Assembly: GCA_040755995.1 (NCBI GenBank)
Contig: JBFMAF010000030.1
Span: 1-62,007, forward strand
DNA: 62,007 bases
From: Acidobacteriota bacterium
GTDB lineage: Bacteria > Acidobacteriota > CAIWXX01
Direction of reading: 5' to 3'
Under the pieces are notes generated by a model. It saw only the letters and a list, made by a program, of their open reading frames with translations. It was not told the origin of the DNA and did no database searches. Position numbers and translations under genes: made by a program. Positions 391 to 58,269 of this stretch are shown piece by piece. How positions within the stretch are numbered: position 1 is the first letter of the stretch; each line of letters begins with the position of its first letter.

Positions 391-578
391 CGGACTCCCC
401 CGATACGATCGTGGCCGCGAAGATCATTGAAGATGTTTCGAAGTTGAAGGGTGTTGACCCCAACAAGGTCGCGGAAATGGCCAAGAAACTCAAGGCGGGG
501 TCCATGACCCAGGACGACTGGCGGAGATTCGCCGATGGATCCCGCCCCAGGAAGGAGGTGAAGCCCGATGCCCACTAG
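387..578 (+). CDS. Small hypothetical protein (63 aa) translationally coupled to the helicase remnant and the ATPase
   Basis: ATGA overlap at 387-390 with GGAGG upstream. MTDSPDTIVAAKIIEDV...KLKAGSMTQDDWRRFA; its 3' end overlaps the next ATG (568). Confidence 0.7.
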   Translation: MTDSPDTIVAAKIIEDVSKLKGVDPNKVAEMAKKLKAGSMTQDDWRRFADGSRPRKEVKPDAH

Positions 579-2913: not shown

Positions 2914-3390
2914 GGAGAACATGGTGCCGGGGAAGCAAGAGCGGGAAATGACCCGGATCGGCAAGTGGAGGACCTCGGGACATACGAAAGATCATGGTCA
3001 ACCGGTCGTCCACCTCGGGGCATGAAAGTCGGCAGGAGGCCGATATGCTTGGGTTGGAGTGGTTAGTAGGAAGTAAGTACTCGTGAGCAGTTGGTGGCCC
3101 TTCTTGAATGGGGCCCCGTGTCGGAAAAGGACTGAAGGCTTTTCGAGATGAACCCCCGAGTGTTCCATCTGCTCCTGAGGGATTGTACGAACGGTGAACT
3201 GGCTCGTCCAGTCTGTGTTTCAGCGAGTGATTGTCTCCAGCTTCATCGCTACTGATCTGAACCGCCACCTGCGGCGGCGCAAAACATGCTCGCTCGGCTG
3301 GCAGCCACGCGTTCGATCCGAGGATCGACCACCCGAGGATGTCGTGGACTTGGCCGTCGTTGTTGACTGCCGGCGTCTGATCACGCGGGC

Positions 3391-5094
3391 TTACCGCCTC
3401 TCGCGCAAGGAGGCTGTACTCGCAACATCGAAGAACAGTCCTCTGAGAAACGACCGTGGCGTTTGGCCCTGCCGTTGAAGCTCCAGCATCGCGAGGAGGT
3501 CGGCGTCGCCCAACACGAGTATCATCTTCTTGTCTCCGCTGAATGTGTCAATCAGCTTTCTTTCTTTGGGCGTGCGTATTCCTCGCTTTACCAAGATGCC
3601 GAGCCCCCTCTGCGGCCCGTCCAGATAATGGCTGAGTTGCTCAAAATGCGCTTTGGTCAAGGTGTGCGTATTCTTGATCTCCACCACAACGATCGGTCCG
3701 TACGTGTTGGCTATGCGACTCCAAAAGCCCTTGTCCGCCTCCACTAGTGCCACCAAATCCGGTTTGTCTTGACCATCCAGCGTCTCTGCTTGCGGCGAGG
3801 TATGAACCCACTCCTCAAAGAGGAACGGGAGTATGGATGCCACCAGGTCCTGGTACCGCTTCCAGTCGCGCTCGCCAGGTACCAGACCCACAACCCCCGA
3901 GATGAACCTATTGGCTTCCACGGCGACATGCTGGTCGCGGGCCGCTTGTTTCGCAGGCCGGAGTAGACCATCAACAGCGGAGTGGCGTCGGCATACTTTT
4001 CCGAAATGGGGCGTGTCATAGGCTTTCAGCAGCGCCTGCAGGGTCTCCACCAAGTGAGTTCTCATCTCGATGATCTGCCTGTTCTTGTTGATCTCACTAG
4101 ACCTGCAGAAATCCGTAATCATCGCCGCCATCATCATGGCGTTCTTCATGTTGCTCAACCAACAGCTCGCCGGGAGGCCCTGCCTGGATGTCAATAGGAA
4201 GGTGCCATAGTTAAAGACCGTAACGCCGAAACTGTCGTCGGTGAACATCGGTGCGAACGGTTGCTCCGCGGTGGTGGGCTTCCGTCTGAGCAGGGTCAGA
4301 ATGGCCTCAATTTCTTCGCTCTCCAGGCGCAGAAAGTGCTCTGGTTGACCTGCGTACCTGACAGGCGACGCCACTAGGTAGGGCCTAAATTGACTGTAAT
4401 CCTTGTCTTGCAGCAACAGCGCCCCACTGATAGCTGCGGACATCCCTCGCAGGACGAACTCGAGAGAGGCGGGCTGGCTCTTGAACAAGAAGGGCTTTGC
4501 ATCGTGAGAGGTAAGCCGTGCCGACGAGGCCGCGATCTGCGAGAACTCGAGATCGCCCTCAAGATCCACATTTAGCCCAACGGACCAGCCGGTCGGGCAC
4601 AGATATGCACTTGGGAAGACACGAGCAGCCTGAAGGCCGTCAAGCCCCAAACTGGAGATATGGTCTTGGTTCATCCGGATCAGGTCGGCGTCCTGGAACA
4701 CGACACGATGGGGAGCCAGCCCGAACCAGTTCCCTTTGAGAGGCAACACCTGGGCGTAATAGCTCGCCCAGAACTGGTGAGGCTTCTTGACCCTCCCGCG
4801 GATCGTGCGAGACAGCCTGAAGCGACGGCCCATCGGGTCGAGGCCGATGGCATTCTGCCGTCCGCCTCGAGAACCGTAGGAATCCTTGTCCAAGACTTGG
4901 CGGCCAAACTCTGAGAGTGCCTCCGAATTGAGCAGATCGAGGCAGCTCTGCACCCAAAAGATGTCGAACCGGAATTTTCTCATCCTCAGGTTGAACATGG
5001 CGTCCAATGGTGCTAGGCTAATTATAATAGTTGGCTGAGCACCCCGAAAGGGGGTCTGATTGACGAAAGTCCCTCCGACTGGGAGGGCGTTCAC
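3391..5094 (-). CDS. Hypothetical protein with C-terminal PD-(D/E)xK (Mrr-like) restriction endonuclease domain
   Basis: C-terminus DWKRYQDLVASILPFLF...DGQDKPDLV...VVEIKN...EQLSHYL...ILVLGDADLLAM. The N-terminal ~380 aa were not recognised. Start uncertain. Confidence 0.7.
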   Translation of the reverse strand: MNALPVGGTFVNQTPFRGAQPTIIISLAPLDAMFNLRMRKFRFDIFWVQSCLDLLNSEALSEFGRQVLDKDSYGSRGGRQNAIGLDPMGRRFRLSRTIRGRVKKPHQFWASYYAQVLPLKGNWFGLAPHRVVFQDADLIRMNQDHISSLGLDGLQAARVFPSAYLCPTGWSVGLNVDLEGDLEFSQIAASSARLTSHDAKPFLFKSQPASLEFVLRGMSAAISGALLLQDKDYSQFRPYLVASPVRYAGQPEHFLRLESEEIEAILTLLRRKPTTAEQPFAPMFTDDSFGVTVFNYGTFLLTSRQGLPASCWLSNMKNAMMMAAMITDFCRSSEINKNRQIIEMRTHLVETLQALLKAYDTPHFGKVCRRHSAVDGLLRPAKQAARDQHVAVEANRFISGVVGLVPGERDWKRYQDLVASILPFLFEEWVHTSPQAETLDGQDKPDLVALVEADKGFWSRIANTYGPIVVVEIKNTHTLTKAHFEQLSHYLDGPQRGLGILVKRGIRTPKERKLIDTFSGDKKMILVLGDADLLAMLELQRQGQTPRSFLRGLFFDVASTASLRERR

Positions 5095-5168
5095 CGGCCC
5101 TAGGGCCGGGTCGCAAAGCAGTACCGGACCGTCCGTCGAGGCAACCTACGTGTTGCTCGAACAGGGCG

Positions 5169-5463
5169 GGCCACGGGGAGCAGCAAACCCTCGCCGACCC
5201 CCTGGAGGAGGCGTCCGGCTTCCATCGCCGGAAGCGATGGTGCTGTGCCGCAGAAGAAACTCATGCCTGTGAATATCAGCAGCCCACGATGTAGGTGCGG
5301 GTACGTCCCAGCATATCGCCCAACCACGACACAACGGTAATCGCAATGGCCGAGCCCATGAGGTACGAGATGATGACCCACTGAATCTCCTGCAGATCAG
5401 TCCTGGCATCATCTTGGGCAGAGTGAGGTCGGCGGTCGTGGTCACCAGCGGGGCGAAGAGGAG
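5169..5463 (-). pseudogene. Frameshifted N-terminal fragment of a DHA2 (EmrB/QacA) MFS transporter
   Basis: Joined across frames: LTLPKMM / DLQEIQWVIISYLMGSAIAITVVSWLGDMLGRTRTYIV / LLIFTGMSFFCGTAPSLPAMEAGRLLQGVGEGLLLPVA. Confidence 0.75.
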
Positions 5464-5495
5464 CGGAGATTCTCGAAGAAGGCCTTCTTGGAGGG

Positions 5496-6443
5496 TCAGG
5501 AGCCCGGTTCGAGAGGCGTCGGGCCGTTGAACCAGATCACGTGGTCCGGTTCCTCCGCAATCCACACTCGCGTTCCCCATGCCAGCTGCTCGATGAACCT
5601 GCGCATGGTGCTCCGGTCCGGAAAAGCGCTTACGTAGACCACGCTCCATCCCAACTTCACCGCAGGTGCCACCAGCGCGCCAAGCTCGACGATTCGGCTC
5701 GGCCTGACGGGGCCGGTCGTCGTCACAGCCTCGACAACGACCAGTCGGTGCTCGTGCATGTCCGCGGCCAACACGTCCGGCAGTGCCGCAGCGACATCTA
5801 TCGGCAGGCTCATCTCACGCATAGCCTGCCGATTCTGGTATCCGGTCTTGCGCGCAGTATCTCCCAGATACAGCAGCGTCGGCGAAGCCAGAATTCGCAC
5901 CACGAGCCCTTCAACTACTTCCTTCTCCAATTGGCTATGAGCCCCGCCGCTGAGTTGAACGATCCGGGACCCGACACGCAGCCGTGGGCCGCCCGTGGCA
6001 GATGGCCGGCGTCGAGCCGGCGATGCAAACGAGCTTAGCAGCTCATCGAGAAGCGCGCGTCGCTCTCCAGGAGGACAGGTAAGCAGGCGTTCAAGTGCCT
6101 CGGAGATCCGATAGAACGTGTTTGGATCGTTGGTACTCAACTGATGCCGCGTGACCAGCCCGATCTCGCACAGTGGGCTCAGACTCAGTTTTCGATAACT
6201 CTCCCGCGTATTCTCTGCGACCTTCTTCCGGAATTCGGATCGGGCAAATTGCAGAATGTCATGGATGCGGCACCCGTCCCTGAGACACACCTTGCCCGGC
6301 AGTAGTCCGCCACGAGGGGTGTCGTCCGTCATGGCGAAAAGACAGATCGCCGTCTGTTCGGTGGCCACCCCCCTGGGAAGATCGAGCATCTTCAGTAACG
6401 CCACCGCACGCTTGAGGTCCCTGGCGGTCCGCATGCGGATCAC
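5496..6443 (-). CDS. BsuBI/PstI family type II restriction endonuclease
   Basis: AENTRESYRK, STNDPNTFY, SGGAHSQLEKEVVE, LYLGDTARK, LPDV...VEAVTTTGP, YVSAFPDR, LAWGTRVWIAEEPDHVIWFNG. GTG at 6443 overlaps the MTase stop (alternative ATG 6434). Confidence 0.9.
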   Translation of the reverse strand: MIRMRTARDLKRAVALLKMLDLPRGVATEQTAICLFAMTDDTPRGGLLPGKVCLRDGCRIHDILQFARSEFRKKVAENTRESYRKLSLSPLCEIGLVTRHQLSTNDPNTFYRISEALERLLTCPPGERRALLDELLSSFASPARRRPSATGGPRLRVGSRIVQLSGGAHSQLEKEVVEGLVVRILASPTLLYLGDTARKTGYQNRQAMREMSLPIDVAAALPDVLAADMHEHRLVVVEAVTTTGPVRPSRIVELGALVAPAVKLGWSVVYVSAFPDRSTMRRFIEQLAWGTRVWIAEEPDHVIWFNGPTPLEPGS

Positions 6444-8158
6444 CCAGCCGATTGGATTCGGCCCGAGACACGTCGGGCCGAACGACGGAGCTCTGCGCAT
6501 GCGCTCCGGACACGACGTAGGAGATCCGAGGGGATATCGAGGACGGCCGCAAGCGCCTCGTCAATCTCTTCCCGTTCACCGGTTGTTTGGTACGTCGAGA
6601 GGGCTTCCAACAACCGCACTCGACTCGACGGGGGGAAGGCCCTGACATCAGGGACTCTGATGCCTGAGACTGACCCGGGACTCAGATCGAATACCCCCCC
6701 TCCGTACTGATGGGCCTGCACACGCAGGTTCAGCTCTCCAAATGACGATGCCAGCACGGCCACAAGGAGACGCGAGTCGATTCCCTGCCTCGGCTTGATC
6801 TCGATGAAGTTCTCGCTTGCCGGGACCAAGTCCTGATTCAGCCAGACACGATAGCGGACGTACTGGCGCCGTGGGACGAGGATGGGACATCCGCCCCTTT
6901 CCCCTATTTCGTCCTTCACGTTGTACCAGGGCTCTCGGCTGGCTCGGGCAATCCGCGGCCTCCGATGAACGCCCAGGACCTCTGCAGCCGCTCCGCGAGG
7001 TTTGTACTTCAGACCCTCTCCCCACTGAATGTAGCGACGCACGATCTCATCTCGCACGTCCTCAATCGGCGTGTTGCACGTGAAGAGATGCTGACGGGCA
7101 TCCGATCGTCTCAGCAGGTAATGCTCTGGGCAATCCCTGGGACTATACACATAGGACGTCAAGTACTCCCGCTTGAGTCCCATCTCACGAGCGCGGTCGG
7201 CGGACAGAATGAAGAAGTCCCTGGCAAATGACTGGAATCCGATCCGCGAGGAGGCCAGAGCCGAGAGTGGCACGAACCCCTTGTGGCCTGCGATACGGAA
7301 ATAGGCAGGAGGAGCATACAGCCACGTCGACCACGAGGAGTCAGCCGAGAGCGCCGACTGTCTGATTCGAAAGATACGTGGGGGACGATGTCCCCTCTTA
7401 GGCTCAATGGTAGGCGGCCGTGAGGCCAGAACAGCGAATGAGGTCAGTTCCTGATCGGCGCGCCGGTTCCTTTCCGCCTTGAGCAGCACAGGCCGCACAA
7501 GCACCCCATCGAAGACCCTGTCTGCAAACCCGACAATCGAGCAGATGCGGAAGTGTTCCAGCAGGAACTTCTTGAACGGCCTTCCATATCTGGTGTCGAG
7601 CCAGCTGTCCGTGATGATCATCGCGAGTCGGCCGGATTCCCCCAGGAATCCCGCGGCATGCATGGCGAAATGGCAGGCGAGGTCGGTCAGGCGAGGGAGG
7701 TTGGCATGATCCATCAATCGAAGGACGTCCGGACGGAGCCACCAGCGCCGCACATACGGTGGATTGCCGATCACCGCGTCCATGCGCGGCAGGGTCGGTC
7801 CAAAGAGACCGGAACCTATGTCGAATAGACTCTCCCGCAGCAGGTTGACTCTCGGAATGCCCTCCTTTTTCAGGCTCTGTTCCAGTACGCTCAGCGACGA
7901 TGCGTCCTCATCGACGGCGTACACATTGCGGCAGATATCCTCCGTCTCCGCGCCGAGCTCCCGCAACCGCCTGACGGCCTCAATCGTGAAGACCCCTTCT
8001 CCGGCCCCAGCGTCCAACACCACATCCTCCGGAGACCGTATCGCCCACTGTACGAGATCGGCAGCAATCTCAGGAGGCGTAGGGACTGCCCCCTGGGCCT
8101 TGTCGTTTCTGGGAGGAGCGCCACCCAGGTCCGCCTTCTCTGGGACAAGCACACCCAT
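6440..8158 (-). CDS. N6-adenine DNA methyltransferase (type II, Eco57I/N6_Mtase-like), cognate to the REase
   Basis: PTPPEIA, motif I VLDAGAGEGVF, motif IV IGNPPYVRR. ATG 8158 chosen over TTG 8173. Confidence 0.88.
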   Translation of the reverse strand: MGVLVPEKADLGGAPPRNDKAQGAVPTPPEIAADLVQWAIRSPEDVVLDAGAGEGVFTIEAVRRLRELGAETEDICRNVYAVDEDASSLSVLEQSLKKEGIPRVNLLRESLFDIGSGLFGPTLPRMDAVIGNPPYVRRWWLRPDVLRLMDHANLPRLTDLACHFAMHAAGFLGESGRLAMIITDSWLDTRYGRPFKKFLLEHFRICSIVGFADRVFDGVLVRPVLLKAERNRRADQELTSFAVLASRPPTIEPKRGHRPPRIFRIRQSALSADSSWSTWLYAPPAYFRIAGHKGFVPLSALASSRIGFQSFARDFFILSADRAREMGLKREYLTSYVYSPRDCPEHYLLRRSDARQHLFTCNTPIEDVRDEIVRRYIQWGEGLKYKPRGAAAEVLGVHRRPRIARASREPWYNVKDEIGERGGCPILVPRRQYVRYRVWLNQDLVPASENFIEIKPRQGIDSRLLVAVLASSFGELNLRVQAHQYGGGVFDLSPGSVSGIRVPDVRAFPPSSRVRLLEALSTYQTTGEREEIDEALAAVLDIPSDLLRRVRSACAELRRSARRVSGRIQSAG

Positions 8159-8223
8159 GGATCCAGCTCTCAAGGAAAGTCGGTCCGGCCGGTACGTGCG
8201 GCTTGCTGCTCATGCACGATTTC

Positions 8224-29503: not shown

Positions 29504-31075
29504 GTGTCGGGCGTCGTGAGCTCGGTGAGCGCCCTCCCGTTGCTGCTCGAGACCACTGCGGCCGCCGTGCCCTATGGCATCGCAGTCGAGTACCCGCCGT
29601 CAGCGACGATCAGCTACTCCGGGCTGGACGCCCTCTCCGGCCGCGTTCGCGACCGGCTGCGCGCCATGGGAGTTCGCCCCGGCGACCGTGTTGGCCTGTA
29701 TGTGAAGAAATCGATCGACGCGGTGGCGGCAATTTTCGGCGTGATGAAGGCGGGCGCTGCCTACGTGCCCGTCGACATTGCTGCTCCGGTCTCACGTTGC
29801 GCGTACATCCTGAGCGACTGCTGGGTTTCCGCGGTGATCATTGAGCGAAGCGTGGCCGTGGAGTTCGCAGAGGAGACGCGCCGGCTGGGGCGGGACGCAA
29901 GACTGCTCGTGCTTGACGACTGCGGCTCGGGCTATCCACTGCGTGCCGAGCTCGACCGCCTCGACACTTCAACTCCCGCTCCACCCTCCGCCAGCGTGCC
30001 GCTGCGCCCGGATGACGTGGCCTACATCCTGTACACGTCCGGTTCGACGGGGAAGCCCAAAGGGGTCGTCCTGTCGCACCTGAACGCGCTGTCGTTTGTC
30101 GACTGGTGCTCGGAGACGTTCCAGCCGGAGGCGGACGAGCGATTCTCTTCGCACGCCCCTTTTCATTTCGACCTCTCGATCCTGGACATCTACCTCCCGC
30201 TGAAACACGGCGCCACGGTGGTGCTCATCGATGAGATGACCGCCAGGAATCCAGTCGCCTTGGCCGAGATCGTCGCCGAAAGAAGGATCTCGTCCTGGTA
30301 CTCGACGCCGTCCACCCTGACTCTGCTCGCGCAGTTCGGGAGGCTCGATCGCTGCGAGCTCTCGTCGCTGAAGCGCGTGCTCTTCGCCGGGGAAGTTTTT
30401 GCGCCCAAGTACCTCCGGCTGCTCAAGCGGGCGATCCCGCACGCACGATACTACAACCTGTACGGTCCGACCGAGACGAACGTCTGCACATGGTGCGAGA
30501 TCCCCGCAACGATCCCCGAGGACCGGACCGAACCGTTCGCAATCGGCTCTGTCTGCGCGCACCTGCGTGGGAAGGTGGTCGATGAGGCCGGGGGAGAGGT
30601 GCCCGCGGGGGTCGAGGGCGAACTGTGCATCACCGGAACGGGCGTGATGAAGGGCTACTGGAACCTCCCCGAGCGGACAGCCGAGGCGTTTTTTTTCGAT
30701 TCCGACGGCGTTCGCTGGTACAAGACCGGAGACATCGTGACCCAGTCACCGGACGGCACCTACACGTTCATCGGCCGCCGCGACCGAATGGTGAAACGGC
30801 ACGGCTACCGGATCGAGCTCGGCGAGATCGAGGCGGCGCTCCACAGCCATCCCAAGATAAGCGAGGCGGCGGTCGTGGCCACCAGCGACCCGGACGGCTG
30901 CGTGCGCATCCGGGCGCACGTGAGCGGCCGCGAGGGAGCCCGCCCTTCCATCATCGAGCTCAAGCGCTTCTGCGCCGAGGTGCTGCCCATCTTCATGGTG
31001 CCCGATGCCTTCGCAATCGAGCGGGAGCTGCCGAAGACGTCGACCGGCAAGGTAGACTATCAGCGCTTGGTGTGA
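29504..31075 (+). CDS. Stand-alone amino acid adenylation domain protein (DltA-like)
   Basis: YILYTSGSTGKPKG, FHFDLSILDIY, NLYGPTE, GELCI, YKTGD, RIELGEIE, LPKTSTGKVD. No C or T domain. Confidence 0.93.
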   Translation: MSGVVSSVSALPLLLETTAAAVPYGIAVEYPPSATISYSGLDALSGRVRDRLRAMGVRPGDRVGLYVKKSIDAVAAIFGVMKAGAAYVPVDIAAPVSRCAYILSDCWVSAVIIERSVAVEFAEETRRLGRDARLLVLDDCGSGYPLRAELDRLDTSTPAPPSASVPLRPDDVAYILYTSGSTGKPKGVVLSHLNALSFVDWCSETFQPEADERFSSHAPFHFDLSILDIYLPLKHGATVVLIDEMTARNPVALAEIVAERRISSWYSTPSTLTLLAQFGRLDRCELSSLKRVLFAGEVFAPKYLRLLKRAIPHARYYNLYGPTETNVCTWCEIPATIPEDRTEPFAIGSVCAHLRGKVVDEAGGEVPAGVEGELCITGTGVMKGYWNLPERTAEAFFFDSDGVRWYKTGDIVTQSPDGTYTFIGRRDRMVKRHGYRIELGEIEAALHSHPKISEAAVVATSDPDGCVRIRAHVSGREGARPSIIELKRFCAEVLPIFMVPDAFAIERELPKTSTGKVDYQRLV

Positions 31076-31079
31076 TCCG

Positions 31080-33632
31080 TTGATCGATCGGTTGACCCGC
31101 TTCCTGGCATGGTTGGCCACCAGGCACCCCGTCACGGTGCTCCTCGCAGTCCTCGCAGTCTCCGTTGTGATGTACCACAACACCAGATACCTGCAACTGG
31201 GCACCGATCTCACGGACAGCTTCGGAAGGAACGAGGCCAGATGGCGCGTGGTGACCGAGTACCTCCAGAACTTCCCCGTTGGGAACCAGCTCTTCGTGAT
31301 CATCCAGAGCGCGCAGACCGGCGACGAGGCTTTCGAGCAGATGGAGACCGCGGCAGATCGAATGGTGAACTCGATGAGGCACAGCGGCCGGTTCAAGTAC
31401 GCCCGCTGCCGTCTGACCCAGGAAGAGCTTCTGGGGTTCGCTCGGCTCTACGCGACCAGGTTCCCCAGCTACGCGCGCGAGGAGACCTGGGATGGACTGC
31501 GCGAACGCCTCGGCGAAACCGGCATCCGGGACTGGATCGCGCGCGCGCGCGCCGGGCTCGTGACATCCTTCTCGGGCCTCGGCTCGGACTACGTCGTCGC
31601 TGATCCGCTGGGGCTCAGCGAAGTGCTCATGCCGCGGAACGAAGATCTCTGGAGCCTGCTCGCGTTCGACATGGAATACGGGAGCGGAAACTACTTCTTC
31701 AGCAGAGATCACACTGCCCTGCTTGTGACCGCCGAGCCGAGACAACCGGGCACGGACTATCAGTTCGCCCTCGACGTCGTGAGATGGACCCGCGAGCAGT
31801 GCGACGCGCTCAGTGAAGATGAGGATTCCAGAGGCGCCGGCCTGCGGTTCACCGTCGCCGGAGCCTACGTCTTCGCCGAGCAGGACAGGCGTTTCATCGA
31901 ACGCAACATCACTGTCGTCTCTCTCGTCTCGATCCTCGGCAACCTCCTCTTCTGCCTGGCCGTCTACCGCCGGTTCTCGGTCTTCCTGATGTCGCTCGCT
32001 CCGACAACTCTGAGCCTTCTCTGGACGACGGGTGTCGTCAGCCTCTACCCCGGGCGCGTCAACCTGATCAGCCTGTCGTTCATCGCCATCCTGATGGGAA
32101 TCGGCGACGATCACGTAGTCCACCTGTTCAACAGGCTGGCGGAGGAACGCCGGAACGGCTCAACACTGGAGTCGGCCATGCAGAAGACGATCCGCGGGGT
32201 CGGCAGGAGCATAGTCTTCGGTGTCATCACGACCGGCACGGCAACTGCGGCCCTGGCTACCTCGGACTCGAAGTGGCTTTCCGAATTCGGCCTGATTCTC
32301 ACGATCGGCCTCGGGATGCTCGGCATCCACGTATTGTTCACCGTGCCATCGCTGGTCCACGTCTGGTGGCGCCTGGCTCCGCCGCGCGATCGGGATGAGA
32401 CCGCCTTCCGTCTCCTCCCTTCCGCCGCAGGCTCCACCGCGCGGCTGATCGGGGCCCATCCCGGTGCGCTGTTTGGCTTCTTCGCGATCGCGCTCGCTGC
32501 GAGCGCCTACGCTCTTCCAAGATTCTCCATCCAGCGGCCCATAGGGCTGGTGCGGGGCGAGGCGAACCCGGCGGTCGCGGGACAGAGACTCCTTGCGCAG
32601 AAGTTCGGCGGTAGCGGTGCGCCGGAGGTGCTTCTGATGGAGGGGAGCCAGGAGGAGGTGCTTCAGAGGGCTGAACGGCTCGGGTCTGCGTTGCGGAAAT
32701 TCCGCGAGCGCGGGATCATCGCATCGTACTTCTCCCCGAGCGAAATCGTCCCCTCGGGAAAGACCCAGGATTTGCGATCCGGTGTCTTGACGGGCGTCGA
32801 TCTCGAGCGTGTCGCCACCGAGCTCCAAGATGCCCTCGGAAAGAACGCCTTCCAACTGGAGTACTTCAAGGACTCCATAGACAACCTGCAGAAGATGGCC
32901 TCTGAGCAGCCACACCAGGTGACGGTGGAAGATGCGAGCCGGTTCCTTCCGGCCGGGTTCCTGGACGCCAGCATCCGGAGCATGGGTGGCGGGCGTTACA
33001 TGGCAGCGGTCTCGGTCTATCCCTCAGACCCCGAGGCGTCCGACGCGCTTCCCGACGAAACGCTCAACGCGCTGCAGCGGAGTTGCGGGCCGTTCTTCGT
33101 CTTCTCCTTCGCCCGGTTGAATCGCGACGTGCAGAGCCAGGTCGCCTCCGACGCGCGCCGGTCGCTCCAACTCACAATCGCCGGCATCGTGCTAATCGTC
33201 TTTCTTTGCTTCCGGAGCGTTCCAATATCGCTTGCCGTTCTCACCCCCACGGCCTTCTCCATCATCATCACCTTCGGCGCCTTGATCCTGCTCCACCACC
33301 CTTTCAGTCTCATGGCCGTCGCATCCCTCCCCCTCATCATCGGCATCGGGATCGACAACGGCATTCACATGACAAATCGATACCTCGAAGGCGGCGGCAA
33401 GGACATCATCGCAGTCGTCCGCGCTACGGGCGCCGCCCTCTTCCTGAGCAATCTCACGACACTGGTCGGCTTCGGAGCGCTGATGCTGTCGGACTTCCAT
33501 CCGCTCGCCGAGCTCGGGCTGGTCACGACCACCGGCATGGCGCTCACCATGAGCGCTTCACTGCTGTTCCTCCCCGCGGCCATTCTGCTTCTCGAACGCC
33601 GCCGCGCCGCGCGGGCGAAGCGGCCGGCGTAG
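31080..33632 (+). CDS. MMPL/RND family transporter (HpnN-like lipid exporter)
   Basis: Two 1+5 TM repeats; ILMGIGDDHVVH and LIIGIGIDNGIH. Confidence 0.9.
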   Translation: MIDRLTRFLAWLATRHPVTVLLAVLAVSVVMYHNTRYLQLGTDLTDSFGRNEARWRVVTEYLQNFPVGNQLFVIIQSAQTGDEAFEQMETAADRMVNSMRHSGRFKYARCRLTQEELLGFARLYATRFPSYAREETWDGLRERLGETGIRDWIARARAGLVTSFSGLGSDYVVADPLGLSEVLMPRNEDLWSLLAFDMEYGSGNYFFSRDHTALLVTAEPRQPGTDYQFALDVVRWTREQCDALSEDEDSRGAGLRFTVAGAYVFAEQDRRFIERNITVVSLVSILGNLLFCLAVYRRFSVFLMSLAPTTLSLLWTTGVVSLYPGRVNLISLSFIAILMGIGDDHVVHLFNRLAEERRNGSTLESAMQKTIRGVGRSIVFGVITTGTATAALATSDSKWLSEFGLILTIGLGMLGIHVLFTVPSLVHVWWRLAPPRDRDETAFRLLPSAAGSTARLIGAHPGALFGFFAIALAASAYALPRFSIQRPIGLVRGEANPAVAGQRLLAQKFGGSGAPEVLLMEGSQEEVLQRAERLGSALRKFRERGIIASYFSPSEIVPSGKTQDLRSGVLTGVDLERVATELQDALGKNAFQLEYFKDSIDNLQKMASEQPHQVTVEDASRFLPAGFLDASIRSMGGGRYMAAVSVYPSDPEASDALPDETLNALQRSCGPFFVFSFARLNRDVQSQVASDARRSLQLTIAGIVLIVFLCFRSVPISLAVLTPTAFSIIITFGALILLHHPFSLMAVASLPLIIGIGIDNGIHMTNRYLEGGGKDIIAVVRATGAALFLSNLTTLVGFGALMLSDFHPLAELGLVTTTGMALTMSASLLFLPAAILLLERRRAARAKRPA

Positions 33633-40842: not shown

Positions 40843-40973
40843 AAGTTGTTGGCTGGGCGCGAGCGAGCAAATCATGGTCGAAACATTGGGCTGCGGAGGT
40901 GACTTGTCAAGTTTCAGAGAAGGCTCAGGCGGGGAAGGGCGGGAGGTCTGGACGGCTACTGGGCGCAGCAGGC

Positions 40974-41900
40974 GTCGGCAGCGTCTGCTCGCACCTGCGG
41001 GGGAAGGTAGTGGATGAGGTCGGCGGTGAGCCGCCTCGTGGCGCCGACGGTGAGTTGTGCATTGCCGGCCCGAGCGTGATGAGCGGCTACTGGAACGCAA
41101 CATCACAGTGGTCTCACTCGCCTCGATCCTCGGGAACCTCCTCTTCTGCATGGCCGTCTACCGCCGCTTCTCCGTCTTCCTACCTGGTGACGGTGGAAGA
41201 CGCCAGCCGGTTCCTTCCGGCGGGGTTCCTGGACGCCAGCATCCGGAAGATGGGCGACGGGCGTTACATGGCCGCAGTCTCGGTCTACGCCTCCGACCCA
41301 GATGCATCCGACGTACTCCCCGATGAAACGCTCGATGCCCTGCAGCGGACCTGCGGGCCGTTCTTCGTCTTCTCCTTCTCACGATTGAATCGCGACGTCC
41401 AGAGCCAGGTCGCCTCGGACGCACGTCGATCGCTTCAGCTCACCGTCGCCGGCATCGTGCTGATCGTCCTTCTCTGCTTCCGAAGCGTTCCAATCTCGCT
41501 CGCCGTTCTTACCCCCACGGCCTTCTCCATCATCATCACCTTCGGCCTCCTTATCCTGCTCCACCATCCGTTCAGCCTGATGGCCGTCGCATCCCTCCCC
41601 CTCATCATCGGCATCGGGATCGACAACGGCATTCACATGGCGAATCGGTACCTCGAAGGAGGCGGCAAGGACATCATCGCAGTCGTCCGCGCCACCGGGG
41701 CCGCTCTGTTCCTGAGCAACCTCACGACGCTGGTCGGCTTCGGAGCGCTCATGCTGTCAGACTTCTATCCGCTCGCCGAGCTCGGCCTGGTCACGACCAC
41801 CGGGATGGCGCTCACCATGAGCGCATCGATGCTGTTCCTGCCAGCGGCCATCCTGCTGCTGGAACGCCGCCGTGCCGCGCGGTCGAGGCGGCAGGCATAG
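40974..41900 (+). pseudogene. Mosaic remnant of the duplicated A-domain and MMPL genes (two internal deletions)
   Basis: 40974-41096 matches 30542-30664; 41093-41181 matches 31899-31987; 41182-41900 matches 32914-33632. Confidence 0.9.
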
Positions 41901-47762: not shown

Positions 47763-48464
47763 TCATGGTAATGTCTGGAGGAACTCTGTGGAGAAACGTT
47801 CCGCCTCGGTGCATCGACGCCGCACATGAGGCCAGGCGACGGAGAAGTGGCCTGACTTGTCGCGGTAGACCTCAGTCGTCTTCGGGACCCTATTCGCGCG
47901 CGACTGAGCGGCGGTCAGCTGCTTCTCCGGCGCGCGCCTGCACTCCAGGGTGCCGTCTCTGATCCACTTGTGATCTGGGCGAAGAGCTGCCAGCACCCAA
48001 GCCTCGATCGACTTGGATGGGGTACAGAACACGACCCTGGGAGGAACCGCAGCCTCGCCAATCCACCGCAGGACAACCTTCCTCAACGCGTCCGTTGTTG
48101 CGTGGGCAGGAGGGCACGCTCGTTCGCACGGGAGATCGTGAATTCTCTCACGAAGGCCTGCCTTCCTGTAGCCTTCTCCGGCCACGTCGGCGTCCACGTG
48201 TATGAGCAGCACATCATGGAACAGGAAGAGGGGGTTCCCGGCGATGTGGCCGAGGCTTTGACCGGCTGTTTGCCTGCATCACCGATAAACACCCGGCCAT
48301 CCGCCAGCAGTACCGGGTAGTTGCTGGAAGGCTTCGGAGACCTCGGGTTGAAGCGCCTGGATCACGAGTTCGCGGCCTCGAACGAGCTGCCTCACAGCGG
48401 CTGTCAACATGATCAGATCTGTCGGCCCCTCTGCGACGAAGGCTACTCGGACAGGTTCAGACAT
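47763..48464 (-). pseudogene. TOPRIM-like (DUF4276/RloB/AriB-like) partner of the ATPase, interrupted by one in-frame TGA at 48279-48281
   Basis: VAEGPTD...GGWPGVYR*CRQ...LIHVDADVA...SKSIEAWVLAAL; both halves are in the same frame. Confidence 0.8.
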
Positions 48465-49638
48465 TCGCGACTCCACCGAGGTGCCCCATCACCCAAAGCC
48501 GTGACAGAGTCCAGCCCTGGTCAGCCATCTTCCTGAGCTTCTCGGTGAGCCCTATCCGCTGCACAGCGGTCCTGCCGGTTTCGGTCCTCGATACCGTGAA
48601 AAGGCGAACTCGGTCGTCCTGCAGCGGTAGTCCATCCAGCACCAAAGGGTTGTGTGTGGTGAGGAGGACTTGGCGATGCTGCGGCCCTCCCATGTACCAA
48701 CCACAGAACCGCAGCATCAGACTCCGGGCGAGCCGCGGATTGAGGCCGTGATCCGCATTGTCCACTGCACAGAATGCAGGAGTCAGCGGGTGAGCGGCCA
48801 GCGCGGCCATGAAGAGCACGTACAATGCGCCTTCGCTTGCGTCGTAACCCGACAATACATTGCGCTTCTCGCGCATGAACCGATCCTTGAATCGAATCAC
48901 ACGCGGGGATGCAGCTGCGGACGGTGACAGCGGCATCTGGCCGGCGGGCGCTGCCCCGAAGGACGCTGCCCAGTCCACCAGGCGGAGTGCTTCGCCACAC
49001 ACACGCCGGGTATGGTCGTCCCTGTTGCGACGCCGGAGGATTTCGAGAATCGCGTCGGGCAGTCGCCCGCCCGAGAGCCCTATCGGCTGGCGCGGCTGAG
49101 GTTCGGACGCAGTCCCACGAAGCACGGCTGTGTTGGGGGAGAATATGACGAAGTCCTGCAGAAGCTTGAGAAGCTTCAATGCTGGATCGCTGGGGTCGAG
49201 CTCCACAGCCCTGAGCGCGGCGATGCCCTGCTCGGGGTTGGGCGGTTTGTGCATGTGCGGCCCGCGACTCGCAATCTGCTCGCTGCCTTTCCGCCAGTCC
49301 TCAGTCTTGTACCGCCAGCCAGGGGCAGGGTCCTTGAGGGGGTTGTGCAGCGAAACCGCATAGCTTGCCTCGTGATTCGCGGCTTCGAAGAAGATGTGGG
49401 GCGAGCCTCTGGTCGGAAACGCGGATTTGTACAGACTCGGTACGCCGGGGCGGACGCCGTGTTGAAGCAGCGACTGGTCGTTGACCTTTCCCTCGGCGGC
49501 TGCGGACAGCACGCCGACACCCTCGAGAAGGTTACTCTTCCCACTGCCATTGGCGCCGACGAATACGTTGACCTGGCCCAGGCCGACTTCGACTGCCTCA
49601 AGCGACTTGAACCGTCGAATAGTCACTGTCTCAATCAT
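48457..49638 (-). CDS. AAA_21/AAA_15 ABC-type ATPase (defence/TA associated)
   Basis: FKSL, GANGSGKSNLLE, ASEGAL, AVDNADHGLNP, LLTTHNP, LSRLWVMGHLGG. Confidence 0.88.
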   Translation of the reverse strand: MIETVTIRRFKSLEAVEVGLGQVNVFVGANGSGKSNLLEGVGVLSAAAEGKVNDQSLLQHGVRPGVPSLYKSAFPTRGSPHIFFEAANHEASYAVSLHNPLKDPAPGWRYKTEDWRKGSEQIASRGPHMHKPPNPEQGIAALRAVELDPSDPALKLLKLLQDFVIFSPNTAVLRGTASEPQPRQPIGLSGGRLPDAILEILRRRNRDDHTRRVCGEALRLVDWAASFGAAPAGQMPLSPSAAASPRVIRFKDRFMREKRNVLSGYDASEGALYVLFMAALAAHPLTPAFCAVDNADHGLNPRLARSLMLRFCGWYMGGPQHRQVLLTTHNPLVLDGLPLQDDRVRLFTVSRTETGRTAVQRIGLTEKLRKMADQGWTLSRLWVMGHLGGVANV

Positions 49639-54851: not shown

Positions 54852-54880
54852 TTGACATCGGCTCACCTCGATCCTATGTT
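54852..54880 (+). promoter_or_regulatory. Putative sigma70 promoter of the kinase-HK-REC/GcvH operon
   Basis: TTGACA-N17-TATGTT; in-frame GTG 6 nt downstream (leaderless candidate). Confidence 0.55.
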
Positions 54881-54886
54881 GTGACG

Positions 54887-55882
54887 GTGGGCAACAGACC
54901 GGCGCCGCCGATGGATGGGGAATCTCTGTGCGACTGGATTGCCGAACAGGTGCGCAGTTTCACGGATCGAAGTCTCGACGGGCGTCCGGTAGTGTTCGAA
55001 GACACGACCAACTTCATGGCCATCGATCGAGACCACGTTGTGAATCTCCAGGGGGAGTTCTTTCTGGTTCGATGCAACGAGCACGAGTTGCGATTCGGGC
55101 TCGAGGATCAACCCAAGTTCTGGGTGAAACGCGCCATGTCTCTGCACACAGGCCGCCTCCACATTCTGAAGCTGGTCATCAGGGAGGAGTTCAAGACGCG
55201 AATCGGCTCGGTCGAAATCAGGTGCTATCGGAGCGAAGAGAAGGAGGGCAGGGTGCTCGAGTACGTGCGAGGCGATGGGCGTTTCATGCAGGGTCGCACG
55301 GTGAGAGACGTCCGCGGCAACCTCGTGCGTGTGATCGACTTCATCCGTGGTCCGAGCCTGATCAACTACCTGCATGCCATCCCGCTCAGTCACGAGGAGT
55401 ACTTTCACGAGAGGCTTCCAGGAATCATGCCCCACGTCATCTCGTGCCTTCGTGCAATCCAATACCTGCACGACGGCGGTCTCTGTCACGGCGACATCCG
55501 AAACGATCATATTCTGATCGAGGAGGAGACCGGGAGCTACCGCTGGATCGATTTCGACTTGACGCAGGATTTCTCGGATTACGATGTGGCGAGCATCGGG
55601 AATATCCTGCACATGGTAGTTGGGAAACAGCTCACGGCGATGCGGCAGCTGATCGCCGCGGAGCCCGGGCTGGCGGACTGCCTCTCGCACGAGGACGGCT
55701 CGTCGTTCTTCCCCCACCGCCTGATGAACTTCCGCAAGGTCTATCCCTATATTCCAAAGAAACTCAACGACGTGTTGATGCGATTCTCCATCGGAACGGA
55801 GGTCTTCTACGATTCGGTCGGGCAGGTGGTCGCGGACATCGAGGACAGTTGTGTCTCTATGGGGTGGCCCTGTGCCGTGTGA
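54887..55882 (+). CDS. Atypical protein kinase-like protein
   Basis: HILKLV (VAIK-like), EEKE helix, catalytic loop HGDIRNDHIL, WIDFD (DFG-like), YDVASIGNIL. Start GTG 54887 or ATG 54911. Confidence 0.8.
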   Translation: MGNRPAPPMDGESLCDWIAEQVRSFTDRSLDGRPVVFEDTTNFMAIDRDHVVNLQGEFFLVRCNEHELRFGLEDQPKFWVKRAMSLHTGRLHILKLVIREEFKTRIGSVEIRCYRSEEKEGRVLEYVRGDGRFMQGRTVRDVRGNLVRVIDFIRGPSLINYLHAIPLSHEEYFHERLPGIMPHVISCLRAIQYLHDGGLCHGDIRNDHILIEEETGSYRWIDFDLTQDFSDYDVASIGNILHMVVGKQLTAMRQLIAAEPGLADCLSHEDGSSFFPHRLMNFRKVYPYIPKKLNDVLMRFSIGTEVFYDSVGQVVADIEDSCVSMGWPCAV

Positions 55883-55891
55883 GAGTGGGGG

Positions 55892-57391
55892 ATGAGGCGC
55901 AGGAGCGCGTCGTTGGAGCTCACCCTGTGGACGGCTGTCGTCATGACGGCGATCCTGGGGGGCTACGCGTGGTTCAGCCTCAGGTTGCAACGATCGTGGA
56001 TGTTGGAGGAGGTGCGGCGAGGCCTCCTGTTGGCCAGCGACACCCTCAACAACGGGTTGCGTTACGGGATGCAGGAGAACCGGCCGGAGGAGATCCTTGC
56101 GAGTATCCAGCGCGTGGCCCGGGAAACCCACATCCATCGCATTCGGATAATTGGGCACGGGGGTCAGCATATTCTGTCCACCAGCGGCGAGGAAAAGGGA
56201 GAGCGCCTCAACCCGGGATCTCCGGGTTGCATCATCTGCCACAGCAGCGCAGGCACGGTCACGCCGGCGAGCGCACTTGGCGCATCGGCACTCACAGTGC
56301 TCGACGGGAACACGCTGCGCGCGTTCAAGCCGGTTCCGAGCGAGCCCGGGTGCTTCACCGGCGGTTGTCACGCGCAGGATGTGCGCTGCGGCGTGCTCGG
56401 GCTCATCGAGTTGAGCCTGGACCTGGATGTCGTCGAGGAATCGATGGCGCGCCGGGAGCGACAACTTGGCGCGCTGGCGCTGGCAGCGAGCATCATCGGC
56501 GGCTGCGCTCTCTGGTTCGCCCTGTCCCGCCGGTTCCGTAAGCCCCTGCGGGAACTGCTTGCCGGGATCAGGCGGATCTCCGCGGGCGATCTCGAATATC
56601 GTATCCCGCTGCGCCGCCGGGATGAGCTGGGAGAGGTCGCCGAGTCCTTCAACAGTATGGGCGGGCAACTCGCAGCGGCGCAGCGAGGTCTGATCCAGTC
56701 CGAGCGCCTGATCTCGATGGGGAAGCTCGCCGCGGGAGTTGCACACGAGATCAACAACCCGCTCACCGGCATCCTCTCCTATGGCGAGGCGCTGCTCGAG
56801 GATACCGATCCAACCGATCCGCGGCACAAAGGATGCGAGATCGTCGTCCGGGAATCGCTTCGCTGCCGGGAAATCGTCCGCAAGCTGCTCGACTTCGCCC
56901 GCCAGAAGCCGTCCGAACGCGCCAACGTCAGGCCTGAGGATCTGATCCAGCGATCCATCGACGTCATCGTTCGCACGGCGGATTTCAGGAACATCCGCGT
57001 GGAGCAGTCGGTCGAAGAGGATCTTCCGCAGCTGCATGTGGATCCGGTCCAGATCCAGCAGGTACTTCTCAATCTCCTGGTGAACGCCCAGCAGGCGATG
57101 CCGCAAGGCGGCACGATCAGCGTGCAAGCGGCACGTTCGGACGGCGGCAGGCGCGTCGTCTTCGCTGTGAAGGACCAGGGCATTGGAATACCAGAGGAGA
57201 TCCGGACGAGGGTGTTCGAGCCCTTTTTCACCACCAAGGAGGGGAAATCTAGCGGCCTGGGACTCGCCGTCTGCCTCGGCATTGTCCAGCAACACGGCGG
57301 GAGCATCGAGGTGGAGAGCGGGGTGGGCAAGGGCACTACATTTCGCGTGTCACTGCCTGTCGCAGAAGCCCCGGGCAATTCGGCAGACTGA
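55892..57391 (+). CDS. NtrB-like sensor histidine kinase with periplasmic c-heme-binding motifs and HAMP
   Basis: CIICH (56228-56242) and CFTGGCH (56351-56371) between two TMs; RRDELGEVAESFN; AHEINNPL; NLLVNA; FEPFFTTK; GLGL. Confidence 0.92.
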   Translation: MRRRSASLELTLWTAVVMTAILGGYAWFSLRLQRSWMLEEVRRGLLLASDTLNNGLRYGMQENRPEEILASIQRVARETHIHRIRIIGHGGQHILSTSGEEKGERLNPGSPGCIICHSSAGTVTPASALGASALTVLDGNTLRAFKPVPSEPGCFTGGCHAQDVRCGVLGLIELSLDLDVVEESMARRERQLGALALAASIIGGCALWFALSRRFRKPLRELLAGIRRISAGDLEYRIPLRRRDELGEVAESFNSMGGQLAAAQRGLIQSERLISMGKLAAGVAHEINNPLTGILSYGEALLEDTDPTDPRHKGCEIVVRESLRCREIVRKLLDFARQKPSERANVRPEDLIQRSIDVIVRTADFRNIRVEQSVEEDLPQLHVDPVQIQQVLLNLLVNAQQAMPQGGTISVQAARSDGGRRVVFAVKDQGIGIPEEIRTRVFEPFFTTKEGKSSGLGLAVCLGIVQQHGGSIEVESGVGKGTTFRVSLPVAEAPGNSAD

Positions 57392-57402
57392 AGGAGAGTC
57401 GC

Positions 57403-58179
57403 ATGAGGCATCGTGTACTGGTCGTTGATGACGAAGAGGTGGTTCTGGGCGCCGTCAGCACGGCTCTCAGACACGACGATCTCCAGATAGAGACGTCGCA
57501 GAGTGCCGGCGAGGCGCTGGAACTGCTCGGCCGCCACTCCTACGACCTGGTCATCACCGACCTCATGATGCCGGGGATCGACGGCCTGGAGCTCCTGCAG
57601 CGCATTCGGGACGCGCGTGGGGGAACGCGGGCCATCATGATCACAGGATACCCTACGATCCGGACGGCGTTGATGGCGAAGCGTCTCGGCGCGAGCGAGT
57701 ACGTGACGAAGCCGTTCACACAGCAGGAGCTGCGGAGCGTGGTCGTGCGCGTGCTCCGCCAGGCACCCGAGAACACGGACGCGAACGAGAGGTCCTCGAC
57801 TCCGAGGGCAACGCGCCTCACCTACCAGATCCCTGGCCATTCGTGGCTTGCCATCGATTCGGCCAAGGTCGTCACTGTGGGTATGACTGCGCAGTTCGCC
57901 GCCTCGCTGGGCGTGATCGAGGGGCTGGGAATGCCGCGCGTTGGGACGGTCGTCGAGCAAGGGCGAGTGTGCCTGACGATTCGGGCGAAGGACGGCATCG
58001 AGCACAGCCTTCATTCCCCCGCCAGTGGACGAGTCCTGGAGGTCAACGATGCGGTCATCCGAGATCCCGGGATCGCGGAACGTGAGCCCGAAGGAGCCGG
58101 TTGGCTCCTCCGGCTACAGCCCGCATATCTCGACAGGGAACTCCAACGCCTGATGCCGATCGATCCCCAGATCCCGTGA
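57403..58179 (+). CDS. Response regulator: receiver domain fused to a glycine-cleavage-H-like domain
   Basis: LVVDDE, ITDLMMPGIDG, MITGY, TKPF; then HSWLAID...VTVGMT...LHSPASGRVLEVND...EPEGAGWLLRL. Confidence 0.88.
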   Translation: MRHRVLVVDDEEVVLGAVSTALRHDDLQIETSQSAGEALELLGRHSYDLVITDLMMPGIDGLELLQRIRDARGGTRAIMITGYPTIRTALMAKRLGASEYVTKPFTQQELRSVVVRVLRQAPENTDANERSSTPRATRLTYQIPGHSWLAIDSAKVVTVGMTAQFAASLGVIEGLGMPRVGTVVEQGRVCLTIRAKDGIEHSLHSPASGRVLEVNDAVIRDPGIAEREPEGAGWLLRLQPAYLDRELQRLMPIDPQIP

Positions 58180-58240: not shown

Positions 58241-58269
58241 TTGATATGCGGCTTGTGCGCGTCGATAAT
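58241..58269 (+). promoter_or_regulatory. Putative sigma70 promoter of the SBP gene
   Basis: TTGATA-N17-GATAAT. Confidence 0.45.

Follow-up and report, generated by a model that had tools for sequence, protein, structure and literature searches.

A Dsr-associated atypical kinase-fold protein with exchangeable sensory partners: a candidate control circuit for dissimilatory sulfur respiration

Introduction

Dissimilatory sulfate reduction drives the sulfur cycle. Among the described systems closest to the one reported here, Bud32/PRPK and OspG are minimal kinases that lack an activation segment and are activated by a partner, and DcrA is a periplasmic c-heme sensor of the same kind as GSU0935 and Tll0287. 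For the Dsr pathway, DsrD, which acts at the protein level, and DsrT are established or proposed regulators, encoded by accessory genes whose distribution goes with that of dsrAB (main texts of PMC8794893 and PMC10504309). Acidobacteriota have been postulated to alternate sulfate and oxygen respiration (main text of PMC10591310). Here we describe a three-gene operon in 62,007 nucleotides of DNA from an Acidobacteriota bacterium (assembly GCA_040755995.1, contig JBFMAF010000030.1, positions 1 to 62,007; this whole stretch is called the window). It encodes an atypical kinase-fold protein (the kinase), a membrane histidine kinase with two predicted c-type hemes (the sensor) and a response regulator made of a receiver and a GcvH-like domain (the receiver-GcvH protein). 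We propose, with a probability of roughly 45%, that the operon serves to control dissimilatory sulfur respiration at the level of proteins, by a circuit in which a signal would pass from the sensor to the receiver-GcvH protein, then to the kinase and on to a protein of the Dsr pathway. The kinase resembles DsrD and DsrT in being an accessory gene product whose distribution goes with dsrAB; it differs in being an unrelated protein, present in about a quarter of sampled dsrA genomes and accompanied by signal inputs.

Each part of the system is drawn from a known superfamily, but an atypical kinase that is restricted to Dsr genomes and can exchange its sensory partners appears to be undescribed. 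The word "kinase" is absent from the main text, as distinct from the supplements, of PMC10591310, PMC10504309 and PMC8794893, and two large comparative surveys of the Dsr genes make no mention of the kinase in theirs. Literature searches combining the receiver-GcvH protein, the kinase or universal stress proteins (Usp) with sulfate reduction or Dsr, in a scope outside which lay supplements and most subscription papers, returned nothing on the combination. In dsr surveys, the supplementary gene tables may carry the kinase as a hypothetical protein.

Distribution of the kinase and of sulfur genes

The kinase follows Dsr genes at the level of whole genomes. In the sample of the window's phylum (301 genomes, 34 with dsrA) it was found in 5/34 dsrA-positive and 0/267 dsrA-negative genomes, and in Desulfobacterota, sampled as the phylum of G326 (Desulfarculia; 201 genomes), in 31/102 and 0/99, which gives 36/136 versus 0/366 for the two samples pooled. 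In the phylum of G319 the kinase occurs in seven of 261 genomes, all seven with dsrA, and dsrA was present in two of ten genomes spot-checked from the 254 that are kinase-negative. The sampled genomes are akin, many are incomplete and these counts are not a formal test of co-distribution, yet the pattern repeats in three phyla. Across 66 kinase genomes, dsrA scored above the cut-off in 58 and was found in two pieces in two more (G307, G503), and G310, G312, G313, G327 and G328 have other Dsr genes (dsrB/dsrK/dsrC-MKJOP), so that Dsr genes are present in 65/66. In the kinase-positive G304 (2.3 Mb), searches for dsrA, dsrB, dsrK and aprA gave no match.

The window genome fits this pattern, with dsrAB, dsrL, a dsrD-like gene, dsrN, dsrC, aprBA, qmo and sat on one contig (C34) and dsrTMKJOP on another (C37). 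The preliminary description, made from the window alone, had suspected a role in sulfur metabolism because a sat gene lies about 2 kb downstream of the operon. A tie to sulfur metabolism does exist and is far stronger than the window shows, and its original basis is not supported. There is a Sat gene at that distance, behind a periplasmic-binding-protein gene, but it encodes a bifunctional Sat-CysC (PRK05537), and the dissimilatory sat is on a different contig. The fused Sat-CysC is shared with only one other kinase locus (L051, which has a 64% identical copy nearby), and its presence near the window's trio is probably incidental.

We then consider the genes around the kinase, using the 28 genome loci found with the kinase and the best 80 of 413 metagenome loci, many of them short. 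Neighbour counts required at least 5 kb of flank, by which 2 genome and 47 metagenome loci were dropped. A Dsr, Sat or Apr gene lies near the kinase in 9/26 genome loci and 11/33 metagenome loci (24/80 if not filtered for flank), compared to 2.0% of window-genome positions. In Desulfobacterota, sat is within 1.5 kb of the kinase in 6/30 loci, compared to 0.8% of window-genome positions. The type of sulfur neighbour varies by lineage. The trio directly follows dsrMKJOP in L004, L005, L007, L008, L009 and L014; sat stands beside the kinase in L003, L006, L022, L089, L135, L136, L146 and L148-L150; and DsrMK-like pairs do so in L056, L062, L063 and L081. A tandem DsrC-like gene is near the kinase in L074, L087 and L115, and aprBA in L115 and L178, the latter with the order sat-kinase-Usp-X-aprBA-qmoAB. 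The commonest sulfur neighbours are DsrK or DsrK-like genes.

Several observations were made in these sulfur clusters. One 10-kb stretch (L115:1506-11650) holds aprAB, a Rex-type repressor, the kinase with a PAS sensor and receiver-GcvH protein, a tandem DsrC and a DsrMK-like pair. Tandem two-domain DsrC-like proteins without the C-terminal cysteine tail are encoded at C25:2984-3640 in the window genome, L074:1691-2407, L087:6008-6724 and L115:8697-9362; since such a gene adjoins the kinase or the trio in five loci, its product is a candidate kinase substrate. A cytidylate-kinase-like gene (PF13189) is near the kinase in seven loci (L023:7416-8222, L056, L062, L063, L075, L082, L094), and a shorter relative of it adjoins aprB in the window genome. 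Between dsrB and dsrN of the window genome lies an 82-amino-acid (aa) gene (C34:53785-54033) that the Pfam DsrD profile misses; it is likely DsrD, reading YTYFGGSF where DsrD has YWSSGSTT, a motif with no assigned function in the main text of PMC8794893. With DsrD considered as a substrate, the Pfam profile found it in 36/56 kinase genomes, a count made with the profile that missed this gene. In G311 (C5) and G317 (C8) there are two dsrAB-dsrD copies each, with equal scores and about 14 kb apart.

Operon layout and exchangeable partners

The operon consists of three forward-strand open reading frames (ORFs) in tight series, with spacers of 9 nucleotides (nt) and then 11 nt (Table 1), as the preliminary description had it; its sequence motifs (HGDIRNDH and DFD in the kinase, CIICH and CFTGGCH in the sensor, TIRAKDG in the output domain) are likewise all present. 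The kinase start was chosen because kinase homologues are about 320–330 aa long. The description had the locus begin at 54852, where there is a promoter-like site by consensus match, 31 nt from the chosen ATG; the position is that of the −35 box and no gene start. Two promoter-like sites were found compared to 0.9 ± 0.8 in shuffled sequences, and the 54852 site is weak taken alone.

Table 1. Coordinates of the operon and of its main features in the window
Feature	Position	Strand	Remarks
Sigma-70-like promoter site, TTGACA-17-TATGTT	54852..54880	+	Consensus match alone, 10/12 matches
Kinase-fold gene	54911..55882	+	Likely ATG 54911, 323 aa; ORF open from 54827; residue numbering from 54911
Catalytic loop HGDIRNDH	55487..55510	+	His200 in place of metal-binding Asn
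DFD motif and short link to alphaF Asp225	55550..55585	+	8 residues; activation segment missing
Membrane histidine kinase	55892..57391	+	499 aa; transmembrane helix (TM), periplasmic single Cache/PDC-type domain, TM, HAMP, HisKA (His285), HATPase
CxxCH, predicted heme c site 1	56228..56242	+	C113, C116, H117; invariant 15/15
Cx4CH, predicted heme c site 2	56351..56371	+	C154, C159, H160; invariant 15/15
Response regulator, receiver and GcvH-like domain	57403..58179	+	258 aa; intact receiver Asp53, Thr81, Lys103
GcvH-like output domain without conserved lipoyl lysine	57835..58155	+	Asp197 aligns with GcvH lysine

Co-occurrence of the three genes in other genomes had been named as a check on the operon, and it was found. 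The full trio with the heme-type sensor recurs in 13/28 genome loci and 15/80 metagenome loci, and its adjacency is therefore not a matter of chance. A receiver-GcvH gene is within 4 kb of the kinase in 19/28 genome loci (and present in 24/80 metagenome loci), and the heme-type sensor is present in 14/28. In five of the 28 the heme sensor gives way to another sensor, about 605 aa long, that carries PAS domains and, at its N terminus, a Rossmann-like motif. In Desulfobacterota a single-domain Usp gene (scored with a profile built from eight Usp genes confirmed by Pfam) lies within 1.5 kb of the kinase in 28/30 loci, and in 29 of the 30 kinase genomes of that phylum other than G326 no match to the GcvH-like domain was found. 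Thus the trio does recur as a unit, but the exchange of its partners, and the receiver-GcvH genes that stand without a kinase (below), had been missed. The kinase is the constant member of the module and the signal input swaps.

Kinase loci span Acidobacteriota, NC10, Abyssobacteria, Myxococcota, Zixibacteriota, Planctomycetia, Fibrobacteraceae, Riflebacteria, Dehalococcoidia and Desulfarculia. A FastTree tree of kinases (141 rows, five partial kinases left out) puts the Usp-linked ones together in a single group (support 0.99); those with heme and PAS sensors are interleaved, and kinases of sulfur clusters that have no partner nest among the heme-sensor ones.

The gene order is variable, with the kinase first, last or convergent to the sensor-receiver pair (the last at L012, L017, L024, L041-043 and L271-273). 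Such convergence, and the fact that pair and kinase are each found without the other, could mean that they are independent units which share an operon through anaerobic respiration and have no functional contact. We consider this improbable, since the adjacency outlasts three gene orders and complete replacement of the sensor across many phyla, and since one protein (P0246) is a kinase fused to a receiver, the fused receiver being only 36% identical to that of the window.

Two further genes are found at the Usp-linked loci. In L135, L136, L139, L145, L151 and L152, kinase-Usp comes after a separate gene for a protein of about 190 aa, in which Pfam finds a GAF domain in L136; this protein is possibly a further input. 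A RACo/ASKHA activator-like gene (by Pfam in L142) is directly 5' of kinase-Usp in L134, L137, L138, L142 and L143.

The kinase

The kinase is closest in fold to Hanks Ser/Thr kinases. Its model (mean predicted local distance difference test, pLDDT, 95.4) has the bilobal Hanks (eukaryotic protein kinase, ePK) fold; Foldseek gave E 1e-8, and the matches to PknB (4eqm/1mru), YabT (6g4j) and PknG (7mxk) have Z 16–17 and a root-mean-square deviation (rmsd) of 3.3–4.2 over about 230 aligned residues (PknB: Z 17.1, rmsd 4.2, 231 aligned). By sequence the resemblance is faint: the Pfam Pkinase match (1.2e-5) is under the cut-off, and a search against solved structures returned weak kinase matches alone (best E 5e-4). 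Within the family the core is nearly invariant among 139 near-full-length members, with beta3 Lys87 kept in 138/139, and alphaC Glu112, catalytic Asp195 and the DFG-position Asp214 in 139/139.

Unlike PknB, YabT and PknG, to which it is 14–18% identical, the kinase has no sensor or membrane domain, is almost confined to Dsr genomes, and departs from them in its active site. His193, Gly194, Asp195, Arg197, Asp199 and His200 are each present in 139/139 kinases (loop consensus HGD[IV]RxDH), and position 200 is Asn in both outgroup kinases. DFD replaces DFG, and the Gly-rich loop consensus and the APE motif are absent. The linker from DFD to alphaF is 8 residues long in 107 kinases, 12 in 26 and 16 in one (134 matched rows of 139), and in the model a strand (217–219) is followed at once by a helix (223–238). 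The deviant motifs that had been pointed out are family-wide features. As regards membership of the Hanks kinases, the fold and the four core catalytic residues are present and the catalytic-loop Asn and the activation segment are absent; although it fails strict membership on these two features, the kinase probably works like a Hanks kinase.

These same deviations raise an alternative, namely that the protein is not a protein kinase at all but carries out nucleotidyl transfer, acts as an ATPase switch or phosphorylates a small molecule or cofactor for Dsr organisms, with its partners still in control. Kinase-fold enzymes with other chemistry do exist (SelO, SidJ, Bud32), and invariant His200, DFD, the missing Gly-rich consensus and activation segment, the Pkinase score and a set of further invariant basic residues (among them R61, K69, R107, K111, R197 and R270) would all suit such a role. 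However, the four core catalytic residues occur in canonical order, and Hanks protein kinases head the structural search, whose 50 listed matches include no small-molecule kinase. Other ATP chemistry is thus conceivable but unlikely, and phosphotransfer to protein Ser/Thr is itself a prediction.

The short link between the DFG position and alphaF is shared with Bud32 and OspG, and by analogy with these the kinase may be controlled by a bound partner. The match to the Bud32 model is weak (E 0.0012, 18.7 bits, far under the NCBIfam cut-off of 246). Unlike Bud32, the kinase has C-lobe inserts of its own, and KEOPS gene families are absent from its recurring neighbours.

The family is compact and unnamed. 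Of 2913 candidates, 1595 proteins match it at E <= 0.001, and among 1.8 billion representatives 65 clusters do so at E <= 1e-30; its Atlas clusters are labelled "hypothetical protein" and, where the phylum is known, are mostly from Thermodesulfobacteriota. The outgroup kinase domain closest to the family retains the canonical Asn and is found in the giant proteins P0377 (6938 aa) and P0388 (1789 aa).

The sensor histidine kinase

Pfam finds HAMP, HisKA and HATPase_c in the sensor. Its model (pLDDT 78.9, 15 rows) has one Cache/PDC domain between two long helices and matches WalK (Z 12.7, rmsd 2.3, 132 aligned), CitA and, more weakly, the heme proteins GSU0935 (3b42, E 4e-3) and Tll0287 (5b82, Z 8.9), with which it shares a Cache/PDC domain between two TMs and a Cys/His heme motif. 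A CxxCH motif within a periplasmic Cache domain binds heme c. Both heme motifs are retained in all of 15 heme-type sensors (14 from kinase loci and the window's own), at 20–48% identity, in keeping with the preliminary claim of a c-heme histidine kinase; two c-type hemes are predicted. The sensor differs from GSU0935 and Tll0287 in its two motifs, its HisKA kinase and a receiver without a DNA-binding domain. The window genome has two cytochrome c assembly genes. A homologue search with the sensor's periplasmic region gave no match besides itself. A paralogous periplasmic sensor kinase (C34:113716-116584) has a plain CxxCH at the place of Cx4CH and is followed by a 445-aa response regulator.

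The receiver-GcvH protein

The response regulator matches Response_reg (4.8e-28) and GCV_H (6.8e-15) by Pfam, and the output domain matches GcvH structures at 3e-20, so that the proposed GcvH-like output on an intact receiver stands, its fold being assigned by sequence profile. Receiver D53, T81 and K103 are invariant across 128 sequences. The output domain belongs to the fold family of GcvH and LbpA and differs from both in its fusion to a receiver, in one extra hairpin residue and in having no conserved lipoyl lysine: Asp197 aligns with the lipoyl lysine of the window genome's true GcvH.

The description had looked to LbpA, and the corresponding alternative is that the domain, like LbpA, is lipoylated and carries sulfur or electrons, and that the module serves the adjacent Sat-CysC. 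The window copy does have a hairpin lysine (Lys196) and Sat-CysC is 2 kb away, as at L051. This lead fails on conservation, as Lys196 is present in 5/138 homologues and a hairpin lysine at any position in 11/138, whereas LbpA requires a strictly conserved lysine and mostly has two cysteines (PMC6067878); the receiver-GcvH protein is thus not LbpA. The binding-protein gene that intervenes before Sat-CysC occurs at no other locus. We regard a lipoate carrier as very improbable. There were no hdr-like genes or lipoate ligases among the recurring neighbour families of kinase loci, in a survey not aimed at them.

In the sample of the window's phylum, 14 of the 301 genomes match the GcvH-like output domain and 10 of these 14 are without kinase and dsrA. 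In L155 and L158 (L169, L170), from genomes without kinase or dsrA, a sensor kinase and receiver-GcvH gene are followed by a HEAT-repeat protein. At L013, L051, L099 and L101 the receiver-GcvH gene is near NrfD/multiheme genes; DsrO/P-like matches in these four loci are under our identity thresholds and were left out of the Dsr gene counts. This wider occurrence, together with the frequency of DsrK and DsrK-like neighbours, would suit a scheme in which the partner is itself the substrate: the kinase would phosphorylate the receiver-GcvH protein or Usp, and that effector would dock on a DsrMK(JOP)- or NrfD-type membrane complex. Usp proteins are Ser/Thr phosphoproteins. However, conserved Ser/Thr residues specific to the family are absent from the GcvH-like domain, one well-conserved active site would have to accept two unrelated folds, and kinases without a partner persist in sulfur clusters, which makes the scheme unlikely.

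The proposed circuit and its weighing

The control circuit that we favour would operate as follows. When a HisKA kinase and an intact receiver are encoded side by side, they normally make up a His-to-Asp pair, and the class I features of such a pair (HisKA His, HATPase_c and receiver Asp/Thr/Lys) are all present. Because the genes are adjacent and the pair type is established, the first step would be phosphorylation of the receiver by the predicted two-heme sensor, whose hemes may respond to redox state or to a gaseous ligand, for example O2, NO or sulfide. The lysine-less GcvH-like domain of the phosphorylated receiver may then attach to the kinase and switch it. With its activation segment missing, the kinase would depend on a bound partner for control; adjacency through rearrangements, the partner swap and the fusion point to the same step. 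In Desulfobacterota, Usp would fill the kinase-controlling role. Lastly, the kinase might modify a protein of the Dsr/Sat/Apr pathway, as its genomic distribution and placement in sulfur clusters suggest. A complex prediction for the kinase and the receiver-GcvH protein scored 0.00 in a run whose controls were not folded, and weighs neither way.

Several points weigh against this circuit. Kinship among the genomes means that the counts overstate independence, and the co-occurrence of kinase and Dsr could stem from a shared anaerobic lifestyle. The kinase is dispensable, as just 36/136 dsrA genomes carry it, and about two thirds of the loci are without a nearby sulfur gene (17/26 and 22/33). 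In sulfur clusters, many of the kinases stand without either partner (for example L006, L063, L078 and L087), and the receiver-GcvH output has other partners, given its presence in genomes without kinase and dsrA. The invariant His in place of Asn, unlike ordinary kinases, may mean a different chemistry. Finally, no substrate was found: comparing kinase-positive with kinase-negative sets (DsrA and DsrB 21 v 20 each, DsrC 25 v 20, DsrD 5 v 8, Sat 25 v 20), no Ser/Thr/Tyr/His column in DsrA, DsrB, DsrC, DsrD or Sat beat label shuffles, the best differences of 0.15–0.40 being equalled by 25–53 of 60 shuffles, a comparison that is uninformative if the modified site is universal.

If the circuit is correct, dissimilatory sulfate reduction would be under a signal-controlled covalent switch and the GcvH fold would have a new use as an enzyme-regulating output. 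The kinase is a concrete candidate for how cells switch sulfate reduction upon a change in oxygen, sulfate or energy. The bolder statement, that a dedicated and overlooked kinase-fold enzyme with a His-substituted active site covalently switches the core sulfate/sulfite respiration machinery across phyla via exchangeable inputs (the two-heme periplasmic sensor or a cytoplasmic PAS sensor, either of them by way of a receiver with a disarmed GcvH output, or else Usp), we hold only tentatively. Structurally, both the kinase active site, where His replaces Asn and the activation segment is lacking, and the GcvH-type output are of interest.

Other features of the window

The trio is followed at its 3' side by the family 5 periplasmic-binding-protein gene, which has a promoter-like site to itself at 58241-58269. 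This gene and the RND efflux genes upstream were considered as parts of the module and rejected, as they are present at no other locus. Elsewhere in the window, one ORF (40899-41900) joins the end of an AMP-binding domain to an MMPL fragment and resembles a remnant of the AMP-binding and MMPL pair at 29504-33632. Two regions are defence-like: 568-8173, with an SMC/AAA protein, a PD-(D/E)XK-like ORF and a BsuBI/PstI endonuclease and methylase, and 47763-49638, where a 149-aa ORF that matches nothing in Pfam comes after an AAA_21 ATPase.

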